DNA from: Candidatus Velamenicoccus archaeovorus
GTDB taxonomy: Bacteria; Omnitrophota; Gorgyraeia; Velamenicoccales; Velamenicoccaceae
NCBI RefSeq assembly: GCF_004102945.1
Contig: NZ_CP019384.1
Coordinates: 150,001 to 182,000 of the forward strand
Direction of reading: 5' to 3'
Length of the DNA: 32,000 nucleotides
The notes below the pieces were generated by a model. The model was not told where the DNA came from. It searched no databases and saw only the letters and a list, made by a program, of their open reading frames with translations. Positions 1 to 19,500 of the stretch are shown here, piece after piece. Each line of letters starts with the position of its first letter. Within the stretch, counting starts at the first letter, position 1. The translations under genes and the position numbers were made by a program.

Positions 1-187
1 GGATTACGTCATCGATCATCATCCGCAGCAGCTCAGGGAACGCTGGTGGCAGGGGGTTTAGGGACAGTCAGGCAGGTTTTTAGGGGATTTCCGGATAGAT
101 TTTAGAAGCGCACGAGAAGAGGCTTTTGTTTTCCCGCCGTGATATTTTTTACCCTTTTTCCGCACGCTAAATTTGCATAAGTATTTC

Positions 188-215
188 TTGACTTTTACCT
201 TGCTTATGATAAACT
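188..215 (+). promoter_or_regulatory. candidate sigma70-type promoter upstream of type-1 leader copy A
   Basis: TTGACT (188-193), 16 nt, TAAACT (210-215), with TG at 207-208 (extended -10). The block tttcTTGaC..TTATGATA recurs at 17983-18011. A second TATAAT at 235-240 lies closer to the leader, so the real start site is ambiguous. Confidence 0.4.
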
Positions 216-249
216 TTTTAAACATATTTTTATCTATAATTATCAATAG

Positions 250-635
250 GTTAGGTGAAGGCATAACTTACAGAGCAAAGCGATGTAAGTTATCGGCCTG
301 AACCTGACTCCGCACCAACTTTTCCCATAAGCTTGGCTTTTAAGAGAAGGAATGGAATTGCAGACAGGCGTTTGTCATTAAGACAACCTCTTTAGAAAAG
401 TTGATGCGGGGTTTAATTCCTGTCTGGCGGCAGGCAGGCGCGACGGCCGAGCGCAAAAGCTCCAGCCCAGCAAGGGCGGAGTTTCCTCTTCCGATGAAGG
501 AAAGCTCCAGCCCAGCAAGGGCGGAGTTTCCTCTTCCGATGAAGGAAAGCTCCGGCCTACACTTTATGTCGCCTGTCATAAGGCGACGGTTCCATAAAGT
601 GTCTACTCATTAAAAAAGGAGAAGAGACAAAGCAC
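250..635 (+). promoter_or_regulatory. structured 5' leader RNA, type-1, copy A (upstream of GH94 gene)
   Basis: P1 250-256/302-308. Internal loop GAA(257-259)/UGA(299-301), read as tandem sheared G.A. P1b 260-271/285-298 with a 2-nt bulge (294-295). P2 310-323/396-409 (one C.A mismatch). Unpaired GGGUUUAAUUCC 409-420. P3 559-568/593-602 with a nested hairpin 569-574/581-586. CUCAUU 606-611, SD AAGGAG 616-621. The same architecture occurs at 18135-18290 with compensatory substitutions. Confidence 0.55.
456..555. repeat. 45-bp tandem repeat, about 2.2 copies, each unit a hairpin
   Basis: Unit aaagctccagcccagcaagggcggagtttcctcttccgatgaagg at 456-500 and 501-545 (identical), with a partial third copy at 546-555. 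Within a unit, GGAAAGCUCC pairs with GGAGUUUCC and GCCC with GGGC. Confidence 0.9.
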
Positions 636-3071
636 ATGAAGTACGGACATTTTTCATCTGACGGGCTCGAATTCATTATTTCTCATCCCGTAACACCCAC
701 CCCTTGGATCAATTATCTGACGAACGACAAATATTGCGCGATCATCTCCCAGTGCGCCGGCGGATACAGCTTCTACCGCGACTGCCGCACAGACCGGATC
801 CTGCGGTGGGCCCCGGACTACAAGAATTTCGACAGGCCCGGCCGCTACATTTACGCCCGGGAAGAGCGCGCCGGCAGCAAAAGATCCAAAGTTTGGTCTT
901 TGACATATCAACCGATCAGGGTTGAGCCGGATACCTACGAATGCCGTCACGGCCTCGGCTATACGACGATCGCGCAAAAATACAACGGCGTTGCGTCGCG
1001 GATCACCTATTTTGTCCCTGTCGACGACGATTGCGAACTTTGGCTCGTCTCTTTGACGAACGAGACGAACAAAGAGAAGAAGCTGGAGCTCTATCCTTAT
1101 GTCGAATGGCTCGTCGGCGACTATCACGAAGAGCTGCGTTACCGCAACATCATGAATCTTTATAACCGGATGTGGTTCGACGAGAGCCACAAATTGATCT
1201 TCGGATGGAAGACCGCCTTCTGGCAGGGGATGAATATCAAAGAATTCAAGAATTTCAGCTTTTTCGCCTCCAGCCTTGACGTCAAGGGATATGCCACGAG
1301 GAAGACGGAATTCCTGGGACGTTACAACACCGAGGAGAAGCCCGAGGCCATCCTGGGAGGCAAGTTCAGGAATACGGCCTTATGTTCCGGCGAGGACGGG
1401 ATCGCCTGTTTCAAGCACACCGTGAAGCTCGCGCCCCGGCAGACAAAGGAATTTGTGGTGATCCTGGGCGAGACGGAAGGGCAGTCGAGCGCCATCAGGC
1501 TCGTTGAAAAATACAGGGACCTGGCGCAGGTCAAGAAGGCGCTTGAAAGCACGCGGGATCTCTGGAAGAAGCGCATCGCCGGCAATATCCTTGTCAAGAC
1601 ACCGGACAGCGATTTCGACACCATGGTCAACACTTGGGTGAAATACCAGGTGTATATCTGCAATCTCTGGTCGCGTTCCCCGTCGTTTTATCACGAGGGT
1701 TCCGGCGGCCGCGGGTATCGCGATTCAGCCCAGGATTCGGAGGCGATCGTTTCCATCAACCACGAGGTGACGCGCAAGCGCATCCTGCAGATCGCAGCCT
1801 TGATCCGTCGGGATGGGACGTCTGCGCCCGGCTGGTCTGACACGTCGGGCCCCAATCAGCACCGTCCGAACAAGGATCATCAGGTCTGGCTGACGGCGAC
1901 CGTACGCGCCTATATCCAGGAAACGGGGGATAAGAGCATTCTTGAGGCCTATGTGCCATATCTCAAGGACAAGTGGGTGGGCGGTTGGGACATCGATCTT
2001 CAGCATAAGGGCGGCACAACGACAGACGGGGAAGGCACGCTCTTTGAGCATCTGGAGAAGAATCTCAATTTTTGTTTCAACGACGTCGGCGAGCGCGGCC
2101 TGCCGAAAATAGGCCACGCGGACTGGAACGACGCGATCGATGCCGCGGGCAAGAGGCACAAGGGCGAGAGCGTCTGGCTGGCCCAGGCGTTGGTGCGCTC
2201 TTTGAAATATTTTGTCGAACTCTGCGAGCTGACGGGCGATGCGGCCAAGGCTGAGGAATTCAGCCGCAAGGCCAAGACCATGACCGACAGGATCAACGAG
2301 GCGGGCTGGGACGGCGAGTGGTATAAGAGGGGGTTCACCGACGACGGGATCGCTTACGGCACGAAAGATTACGACGGCGGCAAGATCTTTTTGAATACGC
2401 AAGCATGGGCCCTTTTGGGCGGCGTGGCCGACGCAGGAAGGTCGGATAAGATCCTCAAGAGCACCGCCAAATACCTTGACGGCAAACACGGCCTGGCGCT
2501 TTTTTACCCGGCTTTCAGCCATTTCAGGCCGGAGCTGGGCCGCATCAGCATGTTCTCCGAGGGAACGAAAGAGAACGCGGCGGTCTTTTGCCACGCGGCG
2601 CATTTCATGATCGTTGGGCTTTGCATGGCGGGCCGCGGCACGTGGGCTTACGAGTCCATGTGCAAGCTGATGCCGAACAAACAAAAAAATTACGATCTTT
2701 ATAAAGCTGAACCGTATGTCTATGCCGAATATCTCGTCGGGCCGGAGAATCCTTACCGTTACGGCGAGGGCCAGTTCACGTGGATCACAGGGACGTCGGG
2801 CTGGGCGTTCATGGCGGCGACCGAATGGATCCTCGGCGTGCGCAGGGATTATGCGGGTCTGCGCATCGACCCCTGCCTGCCGTCGGCCTGGAAGAGATGC
2901 TCCGTCCGCCGCCTGTTCCGCGGGGATGTGTATGAGGTCGAGATCGAAAATCCCAACGGCGTTGAGAAGGGCATAAAAGAAATTTACGTCGACGGCACCA
3001 GGATCGAAGGGACGCTGGTCAAGCCGTTCGGCGACGGCAAAGAACATAGGGTTCGTGTGGTGATGGGATGA
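636..3071 (+). CDS. GH94 glycoside phosphorylase (cellobiose/chitobiose/laminaribiose phosphorylase-like), 811 aa
   Basis: The N-terminus MKYGHFSSDGLEFIISHPVTPTPWINYL.. resembles cellobiose phosphorylase. Collinear motifs: AGGYSFYRD, RHGLGYTTI, GRGYRDSAQD, GHADWNDAID (catalytic Asp region), EPYVYAEY, WITGTSGWAF, LGVRRDYAGLRIDPCLP. The length fits the ~800-aa disaccharide phosphorylases. No signal peptide. Confidence 0.9.
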   Translation: MKYGHFSSDGLEFIISHPVTPTPWINYLTNDKYCAIISQCAGGYSFYRDCRTDRILRWAPDYKNFDRPGRYIYAREERAGSKRSKVWSLTYQPIRVEPDTYECRHGLGYTTIAQKYNGVASRITYFVPVDDDCELWLVSLTNETNKEKKLELYPYVEWLVGDYHEELRYRNIMNLYNRMWFDESHKLIFGWKTAFWQGMNIKEFKNFSFFASSLDVKGYATRKTEFLGRYNTEEKPEAILGGKFRNTALCSGEDGIACFKHTVKLAPRQTKEFVVILGETEGQSSAIRLVEKYRDLAQVKKALESTRDLWKKRIAGNILVKTPDSDFDTMVNTWVKYQVYICNLWSRSPSFYHEGSGGRGYRDSAQDSEAIVSINHEVTRKRILQIAALIRRDGTSAPGWSDTSGPNQHRPNKDHQVWLTATVRAYIQETGDKSILEAYVPYLKDKWVGGWDIDLQHKGGTTTDGEGTLFEHLEKNLNFCFNDVGERGLPKIGHADWNDAIDAAGKRHKGESVWLAQALVRSLKYFVELCELTGDAAKAEEFSRKAKTMTDRINEAGWDGEWYKRGFTDDGIAYGTKDYDGGKIFLNTQAWALLGGVADAGRSDKILKSTAKYLDGKHGLALFYPAFSHFRPELGRISMFSEGTKENAAVFCHAAHFMIVGLCMAGRGTWAYESMCKLMPNKQKNYDLYKAEPYVYAEYLVGPENPYRYGEGQFTWITGTSGWAFMAATEWILGVRRDYAGLRIDPCLPSAWKRCSVRRLFRGDVYEVEIENPNGVEKGIKEIYVDGTRIEGTLVKPFGDGKEHRVRVVMG

Positions 3072-3090
3072 TTTTAAAAATGACAGAAAG

Positions 3091-3140
3091 ATAACAGAGA
3101 ACACCTGCCTGCCGGCAGGCAGGGAGTACAGAGAACAGAG
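3091..3140. repeat. CAGAGAAC word repeats flanking a 20-nt perfect GC palindrome
   Basis: ataaCAGAGAACac (3091-3104), the palindrome cctgcctgccggcaggcagg (3104-3123), then ggagtaCAGAGAACAGAG (3123-3140). The reverse-complement words (GTTCTCTG) recur at 3249-3290 inside the next gene. Confidence 0.8.
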
Positions 3141-3151
3141 ATGGAGGAAAG

Positions 3152-4549
3152 ATGATGGAGAGACAAAAAAATCAGAAATGTTCAGGCGTCCATTCTTGGT
3201 TTTCAATGCCCCCTTCTTTTGACTTTTCCGTCCTTCGGTCTTTCGGCCTCTCTGTTTTTCTGTTTTCCGTTCTCTGTTTTTTGTTCTCTGGACTAAGCGG
3301 CTGCGGCACCCAGGGCGCCCAGACGCCCCAGGCCGCCGGCAAAAAGATCGTCGTCTGGCACTGGATGACGGACCGCGAAGAGGCCTTCCAGGAACTGGCC
3401 AAAAGATATGAGGCCAAGACCGGTATCAAGGTCGTCTTCGAGTTGTACGCCCCTTCCGATGCCTATTCGCAGAAGGTCCGGGCCGCCGCGCAGGCGCGCG
3501 CGCTGCCGGACATCTTCGGCCTTCTCGGCGAAAAGCGGGATTTTGCGGCATTCATCAAAGCCGGCCATGTGGCCAACCTGACAGGCGCGATGGACGAGCA
3601 GGGGGGAGCCTGGAAGAACCTCTTGTATGAAAAGGCCCTGGCGGTCAACGAATTCAGGGCGGACAATCCTTATGGCGTCGAGGCGGGCATCTACGGCGTG
3701 CCGATAGACGTCATGGATATTCAGATGGTCTACAATAAAAAGCTTTTCCAGAAGGCGGGACTGGACCCGGCGCGCCCGCCGAAGGATTGGGCGGAATTTG
3801 TCGCCGATTGCCAGAAGCTGAAGGATGCCGGCATCCAGGGGCTTGTCAGCGGCTGGGGCGAGATCTGGATGATCGATTGTCTGGCATCGAACTTTGCTTT
3901 CAATATCATGGGGCCGGACAAGGTTTTTGCCACTATCCGCGGCGAGGTCCCTTACACGGATCCCGACTGGGTCAAGGTGTTCGGTCTTTTTAAGGAAATG
4001 GCCGACCGCGGCATGCTGGCGTCGGGTATCGTGACCATGGTGAACAAGACAGCCGAGCAGAATTTCGCTAATGAGCGTTCGGCATTTGCCTTTAACGGCT
4101 CCTGGTGCGTCAATGTCTATCACGGCATGAATCCGTCTTTGGATTACGGCGTGATGCTTCCGCCGAAGGTCAATCCTAAAAACCCCATGTATATCTGGGG
4201 TGGGGCCGGCTCTTCGCTTCTGGTCAACGACCGCTCGGCGGTGAAGGAGGAGGCCATCGCATTCCTGAAATGGCTGACAGCGACCGAGCAGCAGGCATAT
4301 CTCTCGGAGACGACCCGCAACCTGCCTTCCAACAGGAAGGTGTCCGGGTCGATCTCGGAGATCCTGGCGGACTTTTCCAAAGGGATGGATAATGTGACGC
4401 ACCCGAACATCTGGCCGGTGAACGAGCTTCCCAAGGTCATCGAGCGTTTCGACAAGGGCATCCAGTCGATCATCATCGGGGAGAAGACGCCGGAAGGCCT
4501 GGCCGAGGAACTGGCCAAGCTCAAGGCCGAAGAAATGGCGAAACAGTAA
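3152..4549 (+). CDS. ABC transporter sugar-binding lipoprotein (family 1 extracellular solute-binding protein)
   Basis: SD GGAGGA at 3143-3148. Signal peptide ending in the lipobox L-S-G-C (..FLFSGLSGCGTQ). The mature part (KIVVWHWMTDREEAFQELAKRYEAKTGIKVVFE.., PDIFGLLG, GVPIDVMDIQMVYNKKLF, WGGAGSSLLV) is typical of CUT1 sugar SBPs. An alternative start at 3206 is possible. Confidence 0.85.
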   Translation: MMERQKNQKCSGVHSWFSMPPSFDFSVLRSFGLSVFLFSVLCFLFSGLSGCGTQGAQTPQAAGKKIVVWHWMTDREEAFQELAKRYEAKTGIKVVFELYAPSDAYSQKVRAAAQARALPDIFGLLGEKRDFAAFIKAGHVANLTGAMDEQGGAWKNLLYEKALAVNEFRADNPYGVEAGIYGVPIDVMDIQMVYNKKLFQKAGLDPARPPKDWAEFVADCQKLKDAGIQGLVSGWGEIWMIDCLASNFAFNIMGPDKVFATIRGEVPYTDPDWVKVFGLFKEMADRGMLASGIVTMVNKTAEQNFANERSAFAFNGSWCVNVYHGMNPSLDYGVMLPPKVNPKNPMYIWGGAGSSLLVNDRSAVKEEAIAFLKWLTATEQQAYLSETTRNLPSNRKVSGSISEILADFSKGMDNVTHPNIWPVNELPKVIERFDKGIQSIIIGEKTPEGLAEELAKLKAEEMAKQ

Positions 4550-7100: not shown

Positions 7101-9599
7101 ATGGATAAAACAACTCGAAAAGCTATGGGTGGATATGCGGGGTTTCCTATGAGCGTAACGCGTCGTTTTTTTAGCCTCCAGTTTTTAAGCTCTTTTATTT
7201 TTCTGTTTTCTGTTCTCTGTTTTCTGACTTCCGGTGTTTCCTGCGCCCAGGATGAGCCCGTTCAAAACCAGGAGACTGTGGCAGAGGCTCCGGTGGCAAC
7301 TAATATGATTCAAGAGGAGACAGGAGCTCCGGTTGCTGCAGCCGTTGCCGAACCGGGTCAAAAGGCGTCTGAGACGGCCCCGGCGGAAGTCTCATTGGAA
7401 GAGATGGTGACCGTGGCCAGAAAGGCCAAGGATGAGGGCGATTTCGCGAAGGTCTATGCGACGGTGGACGAAGTGATGCGGCGTTTCGGTCGCGAGGCGG
7501 CCAAGGAGCAGGCGTCGTTGAAAGATTTTCCTCCTACCGAGCAAATCAACAGCTATGCGGTCCTGAATAACGTCGCACAGGCCCAGTTCATCAAAGGCGA
7601 GGCCCTGAAAAAAGAGGGCAAGAAAGACGAGGCGATCGCCGCTTTCGGCGTGATCGTCAGCGATTACGGCTATGCCCAGGCCTGGGACCCTCGGGGATGG
7701 TTTTATAAGACAGCCGAGGTCGCCAAGGAGGCCATCGATCGCCTTCAGGGCAAAGACCCGAACGCCGAAAGGTGCGGGGCGATTCCGGCGACGAAGATCG
7801 AGCTGTCCGATCCCGGCAAGGAAGAGATCGTGGATTACGAAAAGTACGGGGAGTTCGTCGATCCCGGCACAAAAGATTATAAGTATGTCGTCAAGTCCCA
7901 AGACGGGCTTTCCGAGGCCGTCGGCGAAGGGATCTATCCCAACACAACGAGCGTGCGCTGGGATCCGGCATTCCAGGAGGTCAAGAAAGAGAAGCGTCTG
8001 GAAGGCAGCCATTGGGATTTTGTCCGTTCCCCCGACCTGGAGGCCGCTTTCATCAAGTGGGCCATGGCGCCCGAGCCGCCGGGTATCCGGCAGTATTACA
8101 CGGCCATGATCCTTGAAAAATCTGGCCTGATCAAGCACGCGATCAAGGCGTATTATGCCGTTGTCGTTCATTTTCCTCAGACGGTGGGCTGGACGTATTG
8201 GCATACGCCGTGGTACGTCGGGCCGGCGTCCATCGCGCGCATCAAATATCTCTGCAAAAAATATCCGCAGGTGAACATGAAACTCGTGGGCGCCTCCATC
8301 AGGGTCGACAACGGTTTCGACAACGATATCCGCAACGACGTCTTCATCGTGAACCCCGGCCGTATCGTGAAAAACCACATCCCGGAGACGATCTCGGACA
8401 AGGTCAGGAAATACGTCGACATGAAGATCATGCAGCGCCGGATCAAGCGCCGCCTGGGCAACGGACAGGTGCGCCTGGTGCAGTATGAGAACGGCGATTG
8501 GCAGATGCTCGTCGACAGTAAGCCCTACGTCATCAAGGGCATCACCTATCAGCCCGTGAAGGTCGGCCAGAGCCCGGACGACGGCTCGCTGGTGAGCTGG
8601 ATGGAATATGATTACAACCATAACGGCAAGTGCGACGGTCCTTACGATGCGTTTGTGGACGCCAACTGGAACAACGTGCAGGATCCCGGCGAGAAGGCCG
8701 TCGGTGATTTTGAGCTGATGAAACGCATGGGGATCAATACCCTGCGCATGTATCATCAGCCGACGCCTTTGAAAAAGGAGATTTTCAGGGATGCATTCAA
8801 AAGATACGGCATCCGCGTCGTCATCGGCGATTACCTGGGTAAATATGCGCTGGGTTCCGGCGCCAGCTGGCACGAAGGCACGGATTACGATAATCCCGAG
8901 CATCAGAAGAACATGTTGGAATCCGTCCGCAAGATGGTCATGGAATACAAGGATGAACCGTTCGTGCTCATGTGGCTCCTGGGCAATGAAAATGTCTACG
9001 GCGTTGCCTGTAACGCCGACAAAAAACCGGACAGTTTCTTTAAATTTGCCAATGAAGCGGCCAAGCTCATCAAGTCTCTCGATCCCAATCATCCTGTCGC
9101 GATCGCCAGCGGCGACGTGCTGTACCTGGACCGTTATGCCGCCAACGCGCCGGATATCGATGTGTTTGGCGCCAATGCATACCGGGGCGATCAGGGGTTT
9201 GGTTCTTTCTGGTCGGACGTCAAGCGGTTGACGGACAGGCCGGCGATCATCACGGAATACGGTTGCGGCGCCTATGCGTACTGTTATACGCGCGAGCAGG
9301 CCGAGGAAGCGCAGATGGAATATCTGACGGGCTCCTGGGGCGATATCGCGGATAATGAAGCCTTCGGCGACGGGGCAGGCAATGCCATCGGCGGTTTTCT
9401 TTTTGAATATTTAGATGAGTGGTGGAAAGGCTATGAACCGGCCATTCACGATACAAAGGGTTTGTGGATAGGGCCTTTCCCCGACGGCTTCATGCATGAA
9501 GAATGGCTGGGTGTCGCCGGCCAGGGGGACGGGAAATTGAGTCCGTTCTTGCGTCAGCTGCGCAAGAGCTATTATGCGTTCGAGAAGCTGTGGAAATAG
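7101..9599 (+). CDS. secreted fusion protein: N-terminal helical/TPR-like region + C-terminal clan GH-A (beta/alpha)8 glycosidase-like domain
   Basis: Signal peptide ..FLSSFIFLFSVLCFLTSGVSCA/QDE. The C-terminal ~360 aa (from ~nt 8480) carry KPYVIKGITYQP, GINTLRMYHQP, LLGNENVYG (putative acid/base Glu), IDVFGANAYRGD, AIITEYGCGAYA (putative nucleophile Glu), GGFLFEYLDEWWKG and EEWLGV. This domain is paralogous to the 10977-12323 product. The start could instead be 7125 or 7149. Confidence 0.65.
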   Translation: MDKTTRKAMGGYAGFPMSVTRRFFSLQFLSSFIFLFSVLCFLTSGVSCAQDEPVQNQETVAEAPVATNMIQEETGAPVAAAVAEPGQKASETAPAEVSLEEMVTVARKAKDEGDFAKVYATVDEVMRRFGREAAKEQASLKDFPPTEQINSYAVLNNVAQAQFIKGEALKKEGKKDEAIAAFGVIVSDYGYAQAWDPRGWFYKTAEVAKEAIDRLQGKDPNAERCGAIPATKIELSDPGKEEIVDYEKYGEFVDPGTKDYKYVVKSQDGLSEAVGEGIYPNTTSVRWDPAFQEVKKEKRLEGSHWDFVRSPDLEAAFIKWAMAPEPPGIRQYYTAMILEKSGLIKHAIKAYYAVVVHFPQTVGWTYWHTPWYVGPASIARIKYLCKKYPQVNMKLVGASIRVDNGFDNDIRNDVFIVNPGRIVKNHIPETISDKVRKYVDMKIMQRRIKRRLGNGQVRLVQYENGDWQMLVDSKPYVIKGITYQPVKVGQSPDDGSLVSWMEYDYNHNGKCDGPYDAFVDANWNNVQDPGEKAVGDFELMKRMGINTLRMYHQPTPLKKEIFRDAFKRYGIRVVIGDYLGKYALGSGASWHEGTDYDNPEHQKNMLESVRKMVMEYKDEPFVLMWLLGNENVYGVACNADKKPDSFFKFANEAAKLIKSLDPNHPVAIASGDVLYLDRYAANAPDIDVFGANAYRGDQGFGSFWSDVKRLTDRPAIITEYGCGAYAYCYTREQAEEAQMEYLTGSWGDIADNEAFGDGAGNAIGGFLFEYLDEWWKGYEPAIHDTKGLWIGPFPDGFMHEEWLGVAGQGDGKLSPFLRQLRKSYYAFEKLWK

Positions 9600-9611: not shown

Positions 9612-9817
9612 TTGCTCCTTGCTTATGCGCTTGTAAATTTTTTTCCAGGGTAGGCCGTCGGCCTGGCGCAGCCGGCCAGGACGGCCATCCGGAAAAAATT
9701 TCCTGCGCAGGTTGCCGCAGAGAGCGGCACACTGGCTTTTCCAATTAAGCCAGGTGCGCGGAGTTGGTTTTGGAAGGAAAAGTTGCCTGGTTAAGGGCAA
9801 AACCAAGGAGGTGCGGT
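9612..9817 (+). promoter_or_regulatory. conserved 5' leader, type-2, copy A
   Basis: It shares with 21798-22035: TTGCTCCTyGCTTA..CTTGnAAATTT..CCAGG at the 5' end; twin hairpins GCCGC-AGArA-GCGGC plus CTGGCTy-(nTCCAATn)-rAGCCAG (9714-9755); and a hairpin abutting the SD (9764-9772/9798-9806) whose sequence differs but whose pairing is kept. SD AAGGAGG at 9805-9811. Confidence 0.55.
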
Positions 9818-10984
9818 ATGAGGAAGTGGATCGTTGGTTTGGCGGTTCTTCTGGCTGTGGGCTGGAACGTATGCGCCGCAGAAGAGAAGGCCGCAGAAGA
9901 AAAGGCGACGGGTGAGGTCAAGAGTTTTCCTGTCTATACGGATGCGAAATCGCCGGATAATCATTACATTCCCTCGGGATGGATGGGGGATTTCGGAGAT
10001 CTTTCCATGGACGATAAGTATATGGGAGATCCGCATTCGGGTTCGACCTCGATCAAGTTTGTTTACACGGCCAAAAAGACGCAGAACCAGGGATGGGCAG
10101 GTGTGTATTGGCAGAACCCGGCGAACAACTGGGGTTCCAAAAAGGGCGGTTTTGATCTGACGGGGCTGAATAAGCTGACCCTGTGGATGCGCGGCGATAA
10201 AGGCGGAGAAGTCATCGATAAGATCGCTGTCGGCGGCATCAAGGGGACGTATCCGGACACGACGGAAGTCTCTGTCGGGCCGATCGAGTTGACGACGACA
10301 TGGACGCCGTACACGGTCAACCTGGCGGGCAAAGACCTGTCTTATATCAACGGGGCTTTGTGCTGGGTCGCCAACGCGGATTCCAATCCCAATGGCGCGA
10401 CGTTCTATATCGACGATATCAAGTTCGAATATGACCCGGCGCTCAAACCGGCCGGCAAGAAGACGCAGGAAATGCCCTTCTACATTTATGCGGATAAGGG
10501 CTCGATCCAGAACCATTTTATTCCCTCGGGATGGATGGGGGATTACAGCGATCTGAAGATCGATGTGGGTTCGACGGACAATCCATATTTCGGCAAGACC
10601 TGCATCAAGATCACCTACGACAACAAGGCCACCAACGGCGCGCGCTGGGCAGGGATGTACTGGCAGTATCCGGCGAACAACTGGGGTGGTGTCGACGGAG
10701 GATTCGATCTTTCCCGCGCCAAAAAACTGACCTTTTGGGCCAGGGGCGAGAAGGGCGGCGAGAGGATCGAGGAGTTCAAAGTCGGCGGGATCATGGGAGA
10801 ATATTCCGATTCCGATACGGCCGGTATCGGTCCGGTTGTCCTGGATAAGGAATGGAAGCAATACACCATCGATCTGACAGGCAAGGACCTTTCCTATATT
10901 ATCGGAGGGTTTGCCTGGGCGACGAACCTGGATGTCAATCCGGACGGCGCCGTGTTCTACCTTGATGAAATAAAGTATGAGTAA
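9818..10984 (+). CDS. secreted protein with two tandem ~170-aa beta-sandwich (carbohydrate-binding-module-like) repeats
   Basis: Start moved to ATG 9818 (SD AAGGAGG 6 nt upstream; the ORF-track start 9764 lies inside the leader). Signal peptide MRKWIVGLAVLLAVGWNVCAAEE. Repeat 1 has ..HYIPSGWMGDFGDL..GWAGVYWQNPANNWG..GGFDLTG..LTLWMRGDKGGE..FYIDDIKFEY. Repeat 2 has ..HFIPSGWMGDYSDL..RWAGMYWQYPANNWG..GGFDLSR..LTFWARGEKGGE..FYLDEIKYE. The sugar-binding function is inferred only from aromatic-rich motifs and context. Confidence 0.6.
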   Translation: MRKWIVGLAVLLAVGWNVCAAEEKAAEEKATGEVKSFPVYTDAKSPDNHYIPSGWMGDFGDLSMDDKYMGDPHSGSTSIKFVYTAKKTQNQGWAGVYWQNPANNWGSKKGGFDLTGLNKLTLWMRGDKGGEVIDKIAVGGIKGTYPDTTEVSVGPIELTTTWTPYTVNLAGKDLSYINGALCWVANADSNPNGATFYIDDIKFEYDPALKPAGKKTQEMPFYIYADKGSIQNHFIPSGWMGDYSDLKIDVGSTDNPYFGKTCIKITYDNKATNGARWAGMYWQYPANNWGGVDGGFDLSRAKKLTFWARGEKGGERIEEFKVGGIMGEYSDSDTAGIGPVVLDKEWKQYTIDLTGKDLSYIIGGFAWATNLDVNPDGAVFYLDEIKYE

Positions 10985-12323
10985 TACAGAGCACAGAGAA
11001 CAGAGTGCGGAGTACAGAAAACGGGGCGGAAGAAACAGGCTTTTCCCTGTTCTCTGTACTCTGTTATCTGTTCTCTGTCTTTGCGGCATGGCCCCTGCGG
11101 CCAGGAAGAAGGCCTACGTCAAGACCCTGAAGGACGGCCAGTATCAGCTCATGGTGGCCGGCAGGCCTTTTATCGTCAAAGGCGTCTGCTACAACCCGAT
11201 TCCCGTCGGGGAATCGCACGACTACGATTTCTGGAATGACCCGGCCCAGCCGTGGCTCGTGGACGGCCAGCTCATGAAGAAGATGGGCATCAACACGGTG
11301 AGGTTCTATCAGCCGGGAGAAGATATGGCGGCCGTCCGCCGGGTGGTCTCCGACCTTTACAAAAAATTCGGCATCCGCACGATGATGGGGCATTGGCTGG
11401 GATTCTGGAATTATCCGGCCCCTTTTTATGACGATGAAGATTTCCGGAAAAAAGTCAAAGCCGATGTCCTGGCGATGGTCGAAGCCCTGAAAGACGAAGA
11501 GGGGATCCTTTTCTGGGTCCTGGGCAACGAAAACAATTATTCTTTCAGCGGCAAGATCAATTCATGGTCGAGCGAACGCATCGACAAGATACAGGACCCG
11601 CGCCAGTGCCTTTTGGCCAGGGCCGAGACGTATTACACGCTGGTCAATGAGATCGCGCAGGAGATCCACAAGATCGATCCTGCTCACCCCGTGGTCATGG
11701 GCAACGGCGAGCTCATCTGTCTCGATGTGGCCAGCACATTCGCCAAGGACGTGGATATCGTCGGATGTATCATTTATCGCGGCAAGACATTTGGGAATAT
11801 TTTCAAGACCCTGAAGAATACCTTTGACAAACCGCTCTTGTTCGTCGAATTCGGCGCCGACGCCTACAACGCCTACGAAAAGAAGGAAGACGAGGACATG
11901 CAGGCGTATTTCCTGGAGTACCAGTGGGCGGAGATTTATCGTAATCTCGGCGGAACCGCAGCCGCGGGCGACGGCGTCGGCAATTGCATCGGCGGTGTCA
12001 TGTTCGAGTGGACGGACGAATGGTGGAAACACGACGAATGGGATGCGAATGGTTTGTCCGTCCATGATACGGAATCCAACTGGTCGAACGGCGCCTATTA
12101 TTTCGATATCAAGGCCGATCGCAACATGAACATGAACGAAGAGTGGTTCGGTCTCGTGAAGCTCCTGCCTGAAGAGGAGAAAACATCTTCCGGACAGGTT
12201 TTGAACAAGCGCGTGCCGCGCAAGGCTTACTATGCCATACGCGAATTCTGGAGACATCCTTCTAAGTCATCTTCGATCAAGAGCCCGGAGCGTCCTGCGG
12301 CCGCCGGAAAAAACAAACGTTAA
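10977..12323 (+). CDS. secreted clan GH-A (beta/alpha)8 glycosidase-like protein, paralog of the 7101-9599 C-terminal domain
   Basis: Motifs collinear with gene 7101: RPFIVKGVCYNP, GINTVRFYQPG, VLGNENNYS, VDIVGCIIYRGK, PLLFVEFGADAYN, IGGVMFEWTDEWWKH, NEEWFGLV. The putative signal peptide ..LFPVLCTLLSVLCLCGMAPA/A is encoded by the repeat at 11046-11079. There is an 8-nt overlap with the upstream gene. An alternative start at 11088 would remove the signal peptide. Confidence 0.65.
   Translation: MSNTEHREQSAEYRKRGGRNRLFPVLCTLLSVLCLCGMAPAARKKAYVKTLKDGQYQLMVAGRPFIVKGVCYNPIPVGESHDYDFWNDPAQPWLVDGQLMKKMGINTVRFYQPGEDMAAVRRVVSDLYKKFGIRTMMGHWLGFWNYPAPFYDDEDFRKKVKADVLAMVEALKDEEGILFWVLGNENNYSFSGKINSWSSERIDKIQDPRQCLLARAETYYTLVNEIAQEIHKIDPAHPVVMGNGELICLDVASTFAKDVDIVGCIIYRGKTFGNIFKTLKNTFDKPLLFVEFGADAYNAYEKKEDEDMQAYFLEYQWAEIYRNLGGTAAAGDGVGNCIGGVMFEWTDEWWKHDEWDANGLSVHDTESNWSNGAYYFDIKADRNMNMNEEWFGLVKLLPEEEKTSSGQVLNKRVPRKAYYAIREFWRHPSKSSSIKSPERPAAAGKNKR
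10985..11079. repeat. long imperfect inverted repeat of CAGAGAAC-family words
   Basis: The left arm 10985-11021 (acagagcacagagaacagagtgcggagtacagaaaac) is largely complementary to the right arm 11046-11079 (cctgttctctgtactctgttatctgttctctgtc). Both arms lie inside the annotated 5' end of the 10977 CDS. Confidence 0.8.
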
Positions 12324-14099: not shown

Positions 14100-14100
14100 A

Positions 14101-14166
14101 GATAACAGTTAACAGAGGACAGAACGATTTTTTCTGTTATCTGTACTCCGTTCTCTGTTTTTTCTG
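14101..14166. repeat. CAGAGAAC-family inverted repeat in the spacer before the GH116 gene
   Basis: gataacagttaacagaggacagaac (14101-14125) faces ttctgttatctgtactccgttctctg (14132-14157), followed by a T-run at 14158-14163. Pairing is imperfect: ACAGAA/TTCTGT plus ACAGA/TCTGT. Confidence 0.65.
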
Positions 14167-17986: not shown

Positions 17987-18015
17987 TTGCACATGCGTCT
18001 TTATTATGATATATC
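17987..18015 (+). promoter_or_regulatory. candidate sigma70-type promoter upstream of type-1 leader copy B
   Basis: TTGCAC (17987-17992), 17 nt, TATATC (18010-18015), with TG at 18007-18008. The block tttcTTGcA..TTATGATA is shared with 184-211. A second candidate is TTGGCC (18080-18085), 16 nt, TATATG (18102-18107). Confidence 0.4.
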
Positions 18016-18134
18016 TAAGTTCAAATGAGAGCATCATCCGGCAAAAACACTTAACTTGTGGGCTGGGTTGATGTTCGGATTGGCCCTCTTTTATTTTTTT
18101 ATATATGGGCCGGTCCCCTCGATGTGACGGCGGG

Positions 18135-18291
18135 GTCAAATGAAGGCATAACTTAGCGAGTGCCAACGAGCTAAGTTATATGCCTGAATTTGACTCAGCA
18201 CGAATTTTAGATAAAATTTGTGCTGGGTTGAATTCGCGCATACAACTTATGTTCATAGCGTTCCATAAGTTGTGCGCTCATTCAAGGAGGT
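18135..18291 (+). promoter_or_regulatory. structured 5' leader RNA, type-1, copy B (upstream of coiled-coil gene)
   Basis: P1 18135-18141/18188-18194. Loop GAA (18142-18144)/UGA (18185-18187). P1b 18145-18157/18170-18184 with a 2-nt bulge (18180-18181). P2 18196-18208/18213-18225. GGGUUGAAUUC 18225-18235. P3 18236-18251/18264-18277. CUCAUU 18277-18282. SD AAGGAGG 18284-18290. Confidence 0.55.
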
Positions 18292-18294
18292 GTG

Positions 18295-19500
18295 ATGAAC
18301 AATAAAATAAAAATATTGCTCGTTGGACTTGCCGTCGTGTGCGCTGCTTCGCTTGTCATCGCCTTCCAGCTCAATACCGTTAACAAAGCCCTCCGTAACG
18401 AATTTTCCGTCAAGGAACAGGAATTTGTTTCTGAACGCCAGAGTTTGTCCAATCAGCTTAACAATCTGCAGATCGCCAAGAAGAAGTTGGAATCGGAGCT
18501 CAGCGAGTTGCGCGGGAAATTCGACGTCGCCGTCAAGGAGCGAGATGATGTCAAATCCAAATTTGACCTCGTGACCAAAGAGCGGGCGAGCGCCGTCGAC
18601 CGTCTTCAGGAGCTGATCAAGGAGAACAAGTCTTTGACGGAAGAGGTGGCCAAGCTGAAGGAAACGGGGGGCGTCTCTTATACCGTTTCCACCACCGCCT
18701 CCCAGGACGATGCTTATTGGGCGAAGCTCGTGAAAGACAAGGCCGCTTTGGAGATCGAGGTCCAGAATTTGAAGTCCCAGTTGTCGGATGCGCAACTGAA
18801 GGGCGAGAATGCCATGGAGGAGGGGCGCAAGCTTGACCTCCAGTTCAAGACCATTAACCAGGCCCGGATGGACCTGGAGAGAAAACTGATTTATAACGAA
18901 AAGCTGGCGGAGAGCCTCTCCGAAGATCTTGTCCGGGAAAAACGCGACAAGAAGGCCATTGCCGATCAGCTGGAATCGATCCGGCAGGAAAATTTTGAGC
19001 TCAAGAGCCGTCTCATGGCCTTGGGCGATAAGAAGACGTCGCTGGAAGGTAAGCTTGTTGATCTCCAGCAAGAGCGTGAAATCCTCTCCAAACGCCTTGC
19101 CGAACTGGACCAGATCTTGCAGGAGCGTGTGGATCAGATCATTCAGGTGAAGGATGACCTGAAGGCCGCCAGGACCGAAGCCAAAGAAGCCAGCACCAAG
19201 GATGCCAGGGTTGTTCAGCTGCAACCGATCGTCGTCAAGGCGGCGGAGCCGCAGGTCGCATCGCCGGCCGGCAAACCCGGGGCCGGACAGATCCTGGCCA
19301 TCAATGAAGAGAATAATTTCGTGATCATCGACATGGGCGAACAAGACGGCGTCAAGGTCGGCCAGACATTCAACGTCTACAGGAACACGGAAAAGATTGC
19401 AAGCCTAGAGGTGATCCAGATCCGCAAAGAGATCTCGGCGGCCGACATCAAGTCGGTGACCCCGGGGTCCAAACTCAAGATCGGCGATCTCGTCAGTTAG
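18295..19500 (+). CDS. membrane-anchored long coiled-coil protein with small C-terminal beta domain
   Basis: ATG 18295 lies 4 nt after SD AAGGAGG; the ORF-track GTG 18292 is too close. N-terminal TM helix KILLVGLAVVCAASLVIAFQL. About 300 aa of heptad-like E/K/L/Q-rich sequence follow. The C-terminal ~70 aa are GQILAINEENNFVIIDMGEQDGVKVGQTFNVYRN..LKIGDLVS. I recognise no family. Confidence 0.6.
   Translation: MNNKIKILLVGLAVVCAASLVIAFQLNTVNKALRNEFSVKEQEFVSERQSLSNQLNNLQIAKKKLESELSELRGKFDVAVKERDDVKSKFDLVTKERASAVDRLQELIKENKSLTEEVAKLKETGGVSYTVSTTASQDDAYWAKLVKDKAALEIEVQNLKSQLSDAQLKGENAMEEGRKLDLQFKTINQARMDLERKLIYNEKLAESLSEDLVREKRDKKAIADQLESIRQENFELKSRLMALGDKKTSLEGKLVDLQQEREILSKRLAELDQILQERVDQIIQVKDDLKAARTEAKEASTKDARVVQLQPIVVKAAEPQVASPAGKPGAGQILAINEENNFVIIDMGEQDGVKVGQTFNVYRNTEKIASLEVIQIRKEISAADIKSVTPGSKLKIGDLVS

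Follow-up and report, generated by a model that had tools for sequence, protein, structure and literature searches.

Two structured leaders of Candidatus Velamenicoccus archaeovorus as probable members of a dispersed palindromic repeat family of Omnitrophota

What kind of element lies ahead of two operons in a 32,000-nt stretch of the genome of Candidatus Velamenicoccus archaeovorus (the window)? One copy of a hairpin-rich element (copy A) stands ahead of a GH94 gene, and a second (copy B) lies 5' of the gene for a 401-aa coiled-coil protein. From the sequence alone, the original prediction had read the two regions as a duplicated promoter and structured leader, whose pairing, kept despite sequence change, argued for a functional RNA. 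Comparison with related loci indicates that copies A and B probably belong to a dispersed, non-autonomous, mosaic family of palindromic repeats in Omnitrophota, similar in kind to REPIN, BIME and ERIC elements. That the family is new, being absent from Rfam and from the literature searched, is the best-supported view.

Structure and distribution of the element

The ordered set of elements said to be common to both window regions was present in full, and the same architecture recurred in many Omnitrophota contigs. These contigs were retrieved by a strict core sequence pattern, used as a first screen of genome and metagenome collections; loci and contigs fetched from the collections for comparison are denoted by L-numbers (L001, L004 and so on). 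A covariance model built from nine copies of the three-hairpin element described below (R1) detected ~25 distinct copies in fetched loci totaling 216 kb, including four in 13.6 kb of L015, three in 8 kb of L008 and three each in L014 and L005. Extra copies occurred approximately once per 10 kb in carrier loci, with two in the 32-kb window, and R1 found none in 77 kb from the window's closest relatives. Two viral contigs (L018 and L019) share only letters of the pattern and were discarded as chance matches.

Pairing was conserved through compensatory changes, as had been proposed from the two copies. Across nine copies, 97.1% of cells were paired compared to 85.3% in shuffles and at most 44% with slid partners, and double changes were found at 24 of 52 pairs. 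RNAalifold revealed a helix overlooked in the first reading, in which U-n-AAU of GGGUUnAAUUC pairs with AUU-n'-A of CUCAUUn'A; the n/n' position covaries (UA in six, CG in two and GC in one copy). With this helix as the outer part of HP3, the core consists of three adjacent hairpins (HP1, HP2 and HP3), with an unpaired Shine–Dalgarno (SD) sequence right after HP3. A second covariance model, trained on 19 HP1 hairpins only and on no HP3 (R2), gave a similar picture, with 88% paired cells versus 73% in shuffles and double changes at 19 of 25 pairs. Homologs beyond the window therefore exist and covary. The regions around both copies also folded far better than shuffles (z = -6.9 for 215-640 around copy A and z = -8.3 for 18010-18300 around copy B).

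The first reading had recognized no known RNA family here, and this was borne out. With Rfam 15, the whole window gave no matches at gathering thresholds, and both leader regions searched at E values up to 10 gave only sub-threshold miRNA-type matches, which reflect the long hairpins. No description of these elements was found in the searchable literature on Omnitrophota repeats or RNA motifs and on V. archaeovorus.

Some candidate features were rejected. A mini open reading frame (ORF), (A/G)TG AAG GCA TAA, at the start of HP1 is lost in diverged copies (AAGCAC, GAGGAC and GAGAAC variants). Neither the pairing of GAAUUUGAC with GUUnAAUUC, which extends P2 in the minimum free energy fold of copy B, nor pairing of the outermost arms into a four-way fold had covariation support.

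HP1 is a module of 60-65 nt (H): an outer stem and tandem GA/GA lead to a 4-bp stem, a 2-nt bulge and a 9-10-bp AACUUA stem, which is capped by a GA-rich distal loop. Along the strand it runs from outer stem, GA, 4-bp stem and 9-10-bp stem to the loop, and back through the return strand, 2-nt bulge, 4-bp stem, GA and outer stem; HP3 has this order with UC replacing GA and the bulge on the other strand. R2 matched HP3 sites on the opposite strand with 41-66 bits, compared to only 20-30 bits for the reverse strand of an HP1, and the element can therefore be written H(forward)-HP2-H(reverse). In an alignment of 34 H modules, each read on its own strand (A8), rows derived from HP3 matched HP1 rows in the GA..GA frame, the side of the bulge and the GGAAC...GUGAAC distal loop (a GNRA-like loop with tandem GA). 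As DNA, the element ends in long terminal inverted repeats, both of which are hairpins, and for the right-hand module it is the strand antisense to the downstream gene that carries the conserved motifs. Cross-pairing allowed by this DNA symmetry reached 77.8% compared to 75.7% in shuffles; what is maintained is the local hairpins, not cross-pairing.

Composition varied among copies. At the rimO site, L014 and L017 have near-identical flanks, HP1 and HP3 but an unrelated HP2, and HP2 types recur across loci and genomes; the HP2 of copy A, too, is a swappable module. Tandem H arrays without HP2 occur in L009 and L012, in opposite orientation relative to the downstream gene, partial copies consist of HP2 and HP3 or of HP3 only, and outer frames in L020 enclose other, GC-rich inner hairpins. 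Copy A is itself mosaic, through the interior of its HP2 and the insert in its HP3 (Table 1). As a separate observation, two reverse H modules and an SD in L012 are followed by a 32-codon ORF (L012:2255-2353) for a very basic peptide, MPCGRKKKKAKISKHKRKKRKRRDRHKKKRIR, which may resemble ribosomal protein bS22.

Empty orthologous sites and gene context

Filled and empty sites were compared in five cases (copy A, copy B and three copies of L008). Copy A is absent from L001, in which GH94 is 94% identical, and from L004 (82%). L001 shares with the window the promoter up to CAATAGGTTAGGT as well as AAGGAGAAGAGACAAAGCACATG (~92% identical over 76 nt), and carries ~77 nt of another leader, homologous to that of L004, where the window has the 353-nt element; in L004, too, promoter and SD..ATG are homologous to those of the window. 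Copy B is absent from L024 (95%), L026 (86%) and L027 (80%), with the promoter block and ~125 nt of leader common to all. The empty site ends ..GACGGCGAGGTCAT(A/C)AAGGAGGTGTAATG and reads ..GGTCAT(A/C)AAGGAGG.., compared to ..GGTCA, the insert AATGAAGGC...GCGCTCATTC and then AAGGAGGTGTGATG in the window. L008 has copies upstream of metK, fba and ilvD, and none of these three is present in the syntenic loci L028 (MetK 98% identical), L029 and L030; at the metK site, the insertion altered the end of the upstream ORF from ..FNK-stop to ..FNQVKA-stop. Since outgroups carry no element at any of the five sites, parsimony favors gain over loss.

These comparisons do not bear out a duplication of promoter and leader together. 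The promoter blocks, and the ~125 nt of leader in copy B, are native and are kept in relatives without the element, including the copy A promoter sequence in both L001 and L004. The likeness of the two promoters is explained by the sigma-70 consensus with extended -10 (TTGACT-16-TGaTAAACT and TTGCAC-17-TGaTATATC). The block at copy B was read by eye, and a promoter scan did not list it.

In four of the five comparisons, the 5' arm of the first helix was native flanking DNA, with the complementary arm within the insert (native arm and insert separated by a slash: copy A, GGTTAGGT/GA; copy B, GGTCA/aatGA; L008a, CAAGT/GA; L008b, TAAG/cGA). For copy A, this arm was found in the empty site of L001, and the native arm was often formed by the last codons and stop codon of the upstream gene. 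Such pairing could arise from target choice via the hairpin foot, from inverted copying of the flank or from later quasi-palindrome correction. The argument that structure kept despite sequence change implies a functional RNA thus stands in part: the covariation is there, but some of the change comes from swaps of hairpin modules and some from the native P1 5' arm, which can explain why P1 is fully different in sequence and still paired. Neither of these two sources calls for slow compensatory RNA evolution.

Genes directly downstream of copies include metK, clpP, rimO, argB, ilvD, a leuB-like gene, mazG, a gatB/yqeY-like gene, a response regulator gene, a PilZ gene and GH94. Most copies lie between co-oriented genes, and the upstream stop codon is then located in the first helix, inside GGCATAA or as the UGA of the GA motif. 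The GH94 relatives were all from Omnitrophota, and the element was not found upstream of GH94 in the loci of six other lineages (L001-L004 and L020-L023). The leader is therefore not specific to GH94 or to sugar genes. Nor does it have the expression platform of a riboswitch-like leader, since there is no terminator-like site in window positions 1-700 and the SD is unpaired in the consensus structure.

As members of a repeat family, the elements would spread or recombine as DNA, entering the short interval that separates an upstream stop codon (or a 5' untranslated region (UTR)) from the SD or ATG. In this genome, they probably entered two 5' UTRs recently, after its split from relatives with 94-95% identical proteins. 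Their position between a native promoter and start codon predicts co-transcription with the mRNA, in which three local hairpins would form instead of one global fold-back. A metatranscriptome has been published for the limonene enrichment of V. archaeovorus (PMC13153191). The effect on expression would be generic, with a stable structure beside an unpaired SD and possibly 5' protection or insulation. Copy B may add an internal promoter, and no ligand would be sensed.

Several observations weigh against the view of copies A and B as a dispersed repeat. Direct target-site duplication was not seen in the five comparisons: copy A replaced 77 nt of leader, and copy B permits at most an ambiguous TCA as a duplication. 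All 11 copies outside the R1 training set, full or partial, are in sense orientation to the downstream gene, and the last helix ends 0-3 nt before AAGGAGG (the SD) or, at the rimO, argB, mazG and leuB-like loci, 4 nt before an ATG without SD. Purely selfish DNA predicts neither the sense orientation nor the fit to the SD, and both suggest an expression role or strong selective filtering. In HP1, read on the module's own strand with the outermost column excluded, there were 13 G.U cells versus 3 A.C cells (one-sided binomial p ~0.01, our own calculation), pointing to a constraint on pairing that is specific to one strand, be it RNA or a single DNA strand; the corresponding counts in HP3 (1 versus 0) are too few to choose between the mRNA and the module's own strand.

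The sense orientation, the fit between stop codon and ribosome-binding site (RBS), the starts without SD and the excess of G.U over A.C leave room for the main rival, a dedicated RNA element for generic operon punctuation, which we regard as unlikely but serious. Here, the tandem-GA hairpin would be bound by a protein or nuclease, the element would act as an intercistronic processing, stabilizing or insulating, or termination-reinitiation module that supplies the upstream stop codon and a clean unpaired RBS, and DNA mobility would be secondary. Consistent with this, most operon-internal copies have the upstream stop codon within their first helix, partial copies preferentially retain HP2 and HP3 beside the RBS, tandem GA and GNRA-like loops are typical RNA motifs, and a sigma-70-like promoter at L005:510 would start a transcript at the foot of HP3. 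However, the right-hand GA and GNRA-type motifs are antisense, leaving HP3 of the mRNA with UC/UC loops, so what is conserved is the module as read on its own strand and not the mRNA. At five orthologous sites, close relatives also lack the element, few or no copies occur in 77-85 kb of several lineages, and the H arrays of L009 and L012 run in the opposite orientation. Quite unlikely, in our assessment, is a combined scenario in which a portable intergenic cassette, inserted with guidance by pairing, afterward came to serve as phylum-specific operon punctuation (stop codon, structured spacer and clean RBS). Either the hairpin foot would select the target, by analogy with the guide sequences of IS200/IS605 or bridge RNAs, or insertion would copy the flank inverted; if so, the 'compensatory' P1 changes would come straight from insertion chemistry.

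A functional site in double-stranded DNA, whether a portable promoter cassette with the P1 3' arm and HP2 loop as -35 and -10 or a nucleoid- or recombination-protein site on the H palindrome, appears very unlikely. Copy B and two L008 copies do have TTGACT or TTGACC, 16 nt and TAAAAT, symmetric inverted H modules would suit a dimeric DNA binder, and the BIMEs of Escherichia coli bind IHF and gyrase; but the promoter-like hexamers are tied to one HP2 type and are missing from most copies, copy A included, and compensatory changes that keep intra-strand pairing, G.U included, are unnecessary for such a site. The hypothesis closest to the original prediction, a riboswitch-like or regulator-binding leader that senses a sugar or sugar phosphate (cellobiose, laminaribiose or glucose-1-phosphate) and co-regulates the GH94 and coiled-coil/LacI operons, is highly improbable. 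It draws on the two copies within 18 kb, ahead of neighboring operons in one carbohydrate locus, on their conserved covarying structure and on the lack of an Rfam match, which would allow for a new class. It fails on gene context, absence at orthologous sites and the missing expression platform: copies also stand ahead of unrelated housekeeping genes, the GH94 and coiled-coil leaders of all relatives examined are without one at the orthologous position, and neither a terminator nor an SD-sequestering helix is present. Furthermore, conservation is best in helices rather than in junctions or loops able to form a pocket, and the element tolerates insertions of 70-140 nt at a number of places.

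A multi-helix leader that covaries, lacks an Rfam match and stands at a sugar operon resembles a new riboswitch; recognizing it as a dispersed repeat avoids a false positive that would have been easy to accept. The two cannot be told apart by covariation alone, but they can by gene context and empty orthologous sites. Omnitrophota are uncultured apart from enrichments such as Ca. Velamenicoccus archaeovorus. In some of their lineages, the repeat fills a sizeable share of intergenic spacers, alters C-termini and sits on the RBS regions of housekeeping genes. It could serve as a strain-typing marker, could cause breaks in metagenome assemblies and offers a natural test case for the tolerance or use of stable hairpins beside the RBS.

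Features of the two copies and neighboring sequences

Table 1 Features of copies A and B in the window
Feature	Positions	Strand	Sequence and remarks
Copy A, native sigma-70-type promoter of the GH94 operon	188-215	+	TTGACT, 16 nt, TG-n-TAAACT; outside the repeat
Copy A, HP1 (module H, forward)	250-308	+	R2 69.6 bits at 248-310
Copy A, P1 outer stem	250-256 / 302-308	+	GTTAGGT / ACCTGAC
Copy A, tandem GA/GA	257-258 and 300-301	+	
Copy A, P1b	259-271 / 285-299	+	AGGC-ATAACTTAC / GTAAGTTAT-cg-GCCT; 4-bp stem AGGC/GCCT, 2-nt bulge on 3' strand, then ATAACTTAC/GTAAGTTAT stem
Copy A, central hairpin HP2/P2	310-409	+	CCGCACCAACTTTTC / GAAAAGTTGATGCGG; one C.A mismatch; 73-nt structured interior
Copy A, conserved stretch	409-419	+	GGGTTTAATTC
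Copy A, HP3 outer frame, 5' half	412-419	+	TTTAAT + TC; pairs with ATTAAA 609-614; helix P4, n/n' covary
Copy A, nested extra DNA in HP3	420-558	+	139-nt insert; GC-rich mini-palindrome and 45-nt duplication
Copy A, HP3 inner stem (terminal hairpin)	559-568 / 593-602	+	ACACTTTATG / CATAAAGTGT; loop ends GGTTCC; then CTAC-TC-ATTAAA to 614
Copy A, CTCATT	606-611	+	
GH94, native SD and start codon	616-638 (SD 616-621, ATG 636)	+	AAGGAG; L001 homology resumes exactly at AAGGAG
Copy B, native promoter-like block and ~125 nt of native leader	17987-18138	+	TTGCAC, 17 nt, TG-a-TATATC; conserved in L024, L026 and L027 without element
Copy B, HP1 (module H, forward)	18135-18194	+	R2 72.7 bits; P1 GTCAAAT / ATTTGAC, 18135-18141 / 18188-18194
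Copy B, promoter-like site	18190-18217	+	TTGACT (P1 3' arm), 16 nt, TAAAAT (HP2 loop); 10/12 matches; consensus match only
Copy B, HP2	18195-18227 (P2 18197-18224)	+	CTCAGCACGAATTTT-agat-AAAATTTGTGCTGGG
Copy B, conserved stretch	18225-18235	+	GGGTTGAATTC
Copy B, HP3 (module H, reverse)	18228-18285	+	TTGAAT-TC-GCGC-at-ACAACTTATG ... CATAAGTTGT-GCGC-TC-ATTCAA
Copy B, terminal hairpin	18242-18251 / 18264-18273	+	
Copy B, CTCATT	18277-18282	+	
Coiled-coil gene, native SD and start codon	18286-18297 (SD 18286-18290, ATG 18295)	+	GGAGG; start of 401-aa coiled-coil protein

Although R2 gave no match at E<0.1 to HP3 of copy A, positions 559-614 are, as judged by alignment to other copies, a degenerate module H in reverse orientation. 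The corresponding hairpin of copy B was matched on the minus strand with 62.7 bits (18225-18288). In copy B, GGTCA is native and inserted DNA begins at ~18139. Its HP2 type is widespread, being found also in L005, L007, L008, L010 and L015, and the layout TTGACC-16-TAAAAT recurs in the two L008 copies mentioned above. A start at the promoter-like site within copy B would place HP3 at the 5' end of the mRNA.

Sequences nested in copy A also occur elsewhere. A GC-rich 20-nt palindrome (CCTGTCTGGCGGCAGGCAGG / CCTGCCTGCCGGCAGGCAGG) lies at 419-438 within copy A, alone in the GH94-SBP spacer at 3104-3123 and in an HP3 loop of L008 (L008:1892-1911), with zero chance matches expected in the window. 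The perfect 45-nt tandem duplication (AAAGCTCCAGCCCAGCAAGGGCGGAGTTTCCTCTTCCGATGAAGG twice, at 456-500 and 501-545) is also found in L006 and L013 and is therefore not an assembly accident of one record. L006 is the GTDB representative contig containing the window (CAYYFL010000002.1), labeled 'uncultured Planctomycetia'; as its proteins are 99-100% identical to those of Ca. Velamenicoccus archaeovorus (Omnitrophota), this label is probably wrong.

Copy A precedes the gene for GH94 phosphorylase, after which come those for an ABC sugar transporter and a ROK regulator, with GH2-like and GH116 genes between them, and window positions 1-60 are the end of the last PilZ gene. This gene order is conserved across Omnitrophota (L001, L004, L020, L022 and L023): a giant gene, whose called products have 10,377 to 31,567 residues, precedes one to three PilZ genes, after which come GH94 and a sugar-uptake/GH2/GH116 cluster. 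The 401-aa coiled-coil protein after copy B is 100% identical to a Ca. Velamenicoccus archaeovorus protein, and a LacI-type regulator gene is next. The native ~125-nt leader of this operon (18012-18132), conserved in L024, L026 and L027 (80-95% protein identity), contains a hairpin and T-run at 18065-18096, a candidate attenuator or small RNA with no Rfam match.

The window also has a second repeat family, based on the heptamer ACAGAGA / TCTCTGT (3072-3300, 7184-7242, 10985-11090 and 14100-14165). Its inverted blocks flank several gene starts of the GH94 operon and could pair across start codons; for example, GGAGTACAGAGAACAGAG at 3123-3149 stands just before an SD and CTCTGTTTTTCTGTTTTCCGTTCTCTG at 3250-3290 lies inside the signal-peptide region. 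Other Omnitrophota spacers hold unrelated palindromes (L028:14982-15084, with repeated GTCACAA ... TTGTGAC blocks, L029:15085-15148 and L030:9610-10000), which suggests that hairpin repeats commonly colonize spacers in this phylum. Within a 406-aa ORF (9764-10984) that had no Pfam match, blocks at 9935-10135 and 10487-10687, 552 nt apart, are 75-88% identical, and the product may be a two-repeat protein of a family unassigned by Pfam.

Comparison with known systems

The element resembles riboswitches and other cis-acting leaders in that both window copies lie in a 5' UTR and are multi-helix and covarying, but it has no Rfam match, coherent regulon, orthologous conservation or expression platform, and it tolerates large insertions. 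Two mobile systems were rejected as models. The P1 sequence GTTAGGT ... ACCTGAC has the reverse of the RYYYAAC (5') / GTTRRRY (3') order of integron attC sites, and its long conserved inner sequence is unlike attC; IS200/IS605-type elements need subterminal hairpins on the same strand, whereas the two H modules are on opposite strands.

Terminal inverted repeats of the kind found in transposon-derived MITEs (miniature transposable elements with inverted repeats) are present (forward H at the left end and reverse H at the right). Among MITE-like repeats are ERIC/IRU and Correia (NEMIS) elements, and Correia and ERIC duplicate TA at the target. Likenesses to these include an imperfectly palindromic sequence of 100-170 nt that has long terminal inverted repeats, an intergenic position within operons or in 5' UTRs, internal insertions at preferred points, promoter-like hexamers in some copies and boundaries that may abut or overlap stop and start codons. 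The absence of direct target duplication and the native 5' arm of the first helix set the Omnitrophota element apart.

The BIMEs of E. coli and BOX elements of Streptococcus pneumoniae are mosaic intergenic repeats. Like them, the Omnitrophota element is assembled from a few hairpin units in variable number and order, with tandem arrays and partial copies, and is intergenic in co-oriented gene clusters, where transcription would cover it. It has no sequence similarity to either, is dominated by a fixed three-part core (H-HP2-H') and is strictly sense to the downstream gene, immediately beside the RBS.

REPINs are doublets of REP sequences mobilized by RAYT transposases (PMC3116915, PMC3337134). 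The H unit is longer than a REP (60-65 nt versus 20-40 nt), has two GA-rich internal loops and a bulge and carries no GTAG-type head; the spacer is here an exchangeable hairpin, and the local hairpins covary rather than a long REPIN fold-back. The position also differs, from stop codon to SD here and mainly 3' of genes in REPINs. In common with REPs and REPINs, the HP1 model matches HP3 on the opposite strand (41-66 bits), and the Omnitrophota element is extragenic, dense in some genomes, variable in presence between relatives and conserved in hairpin pairing across copies.

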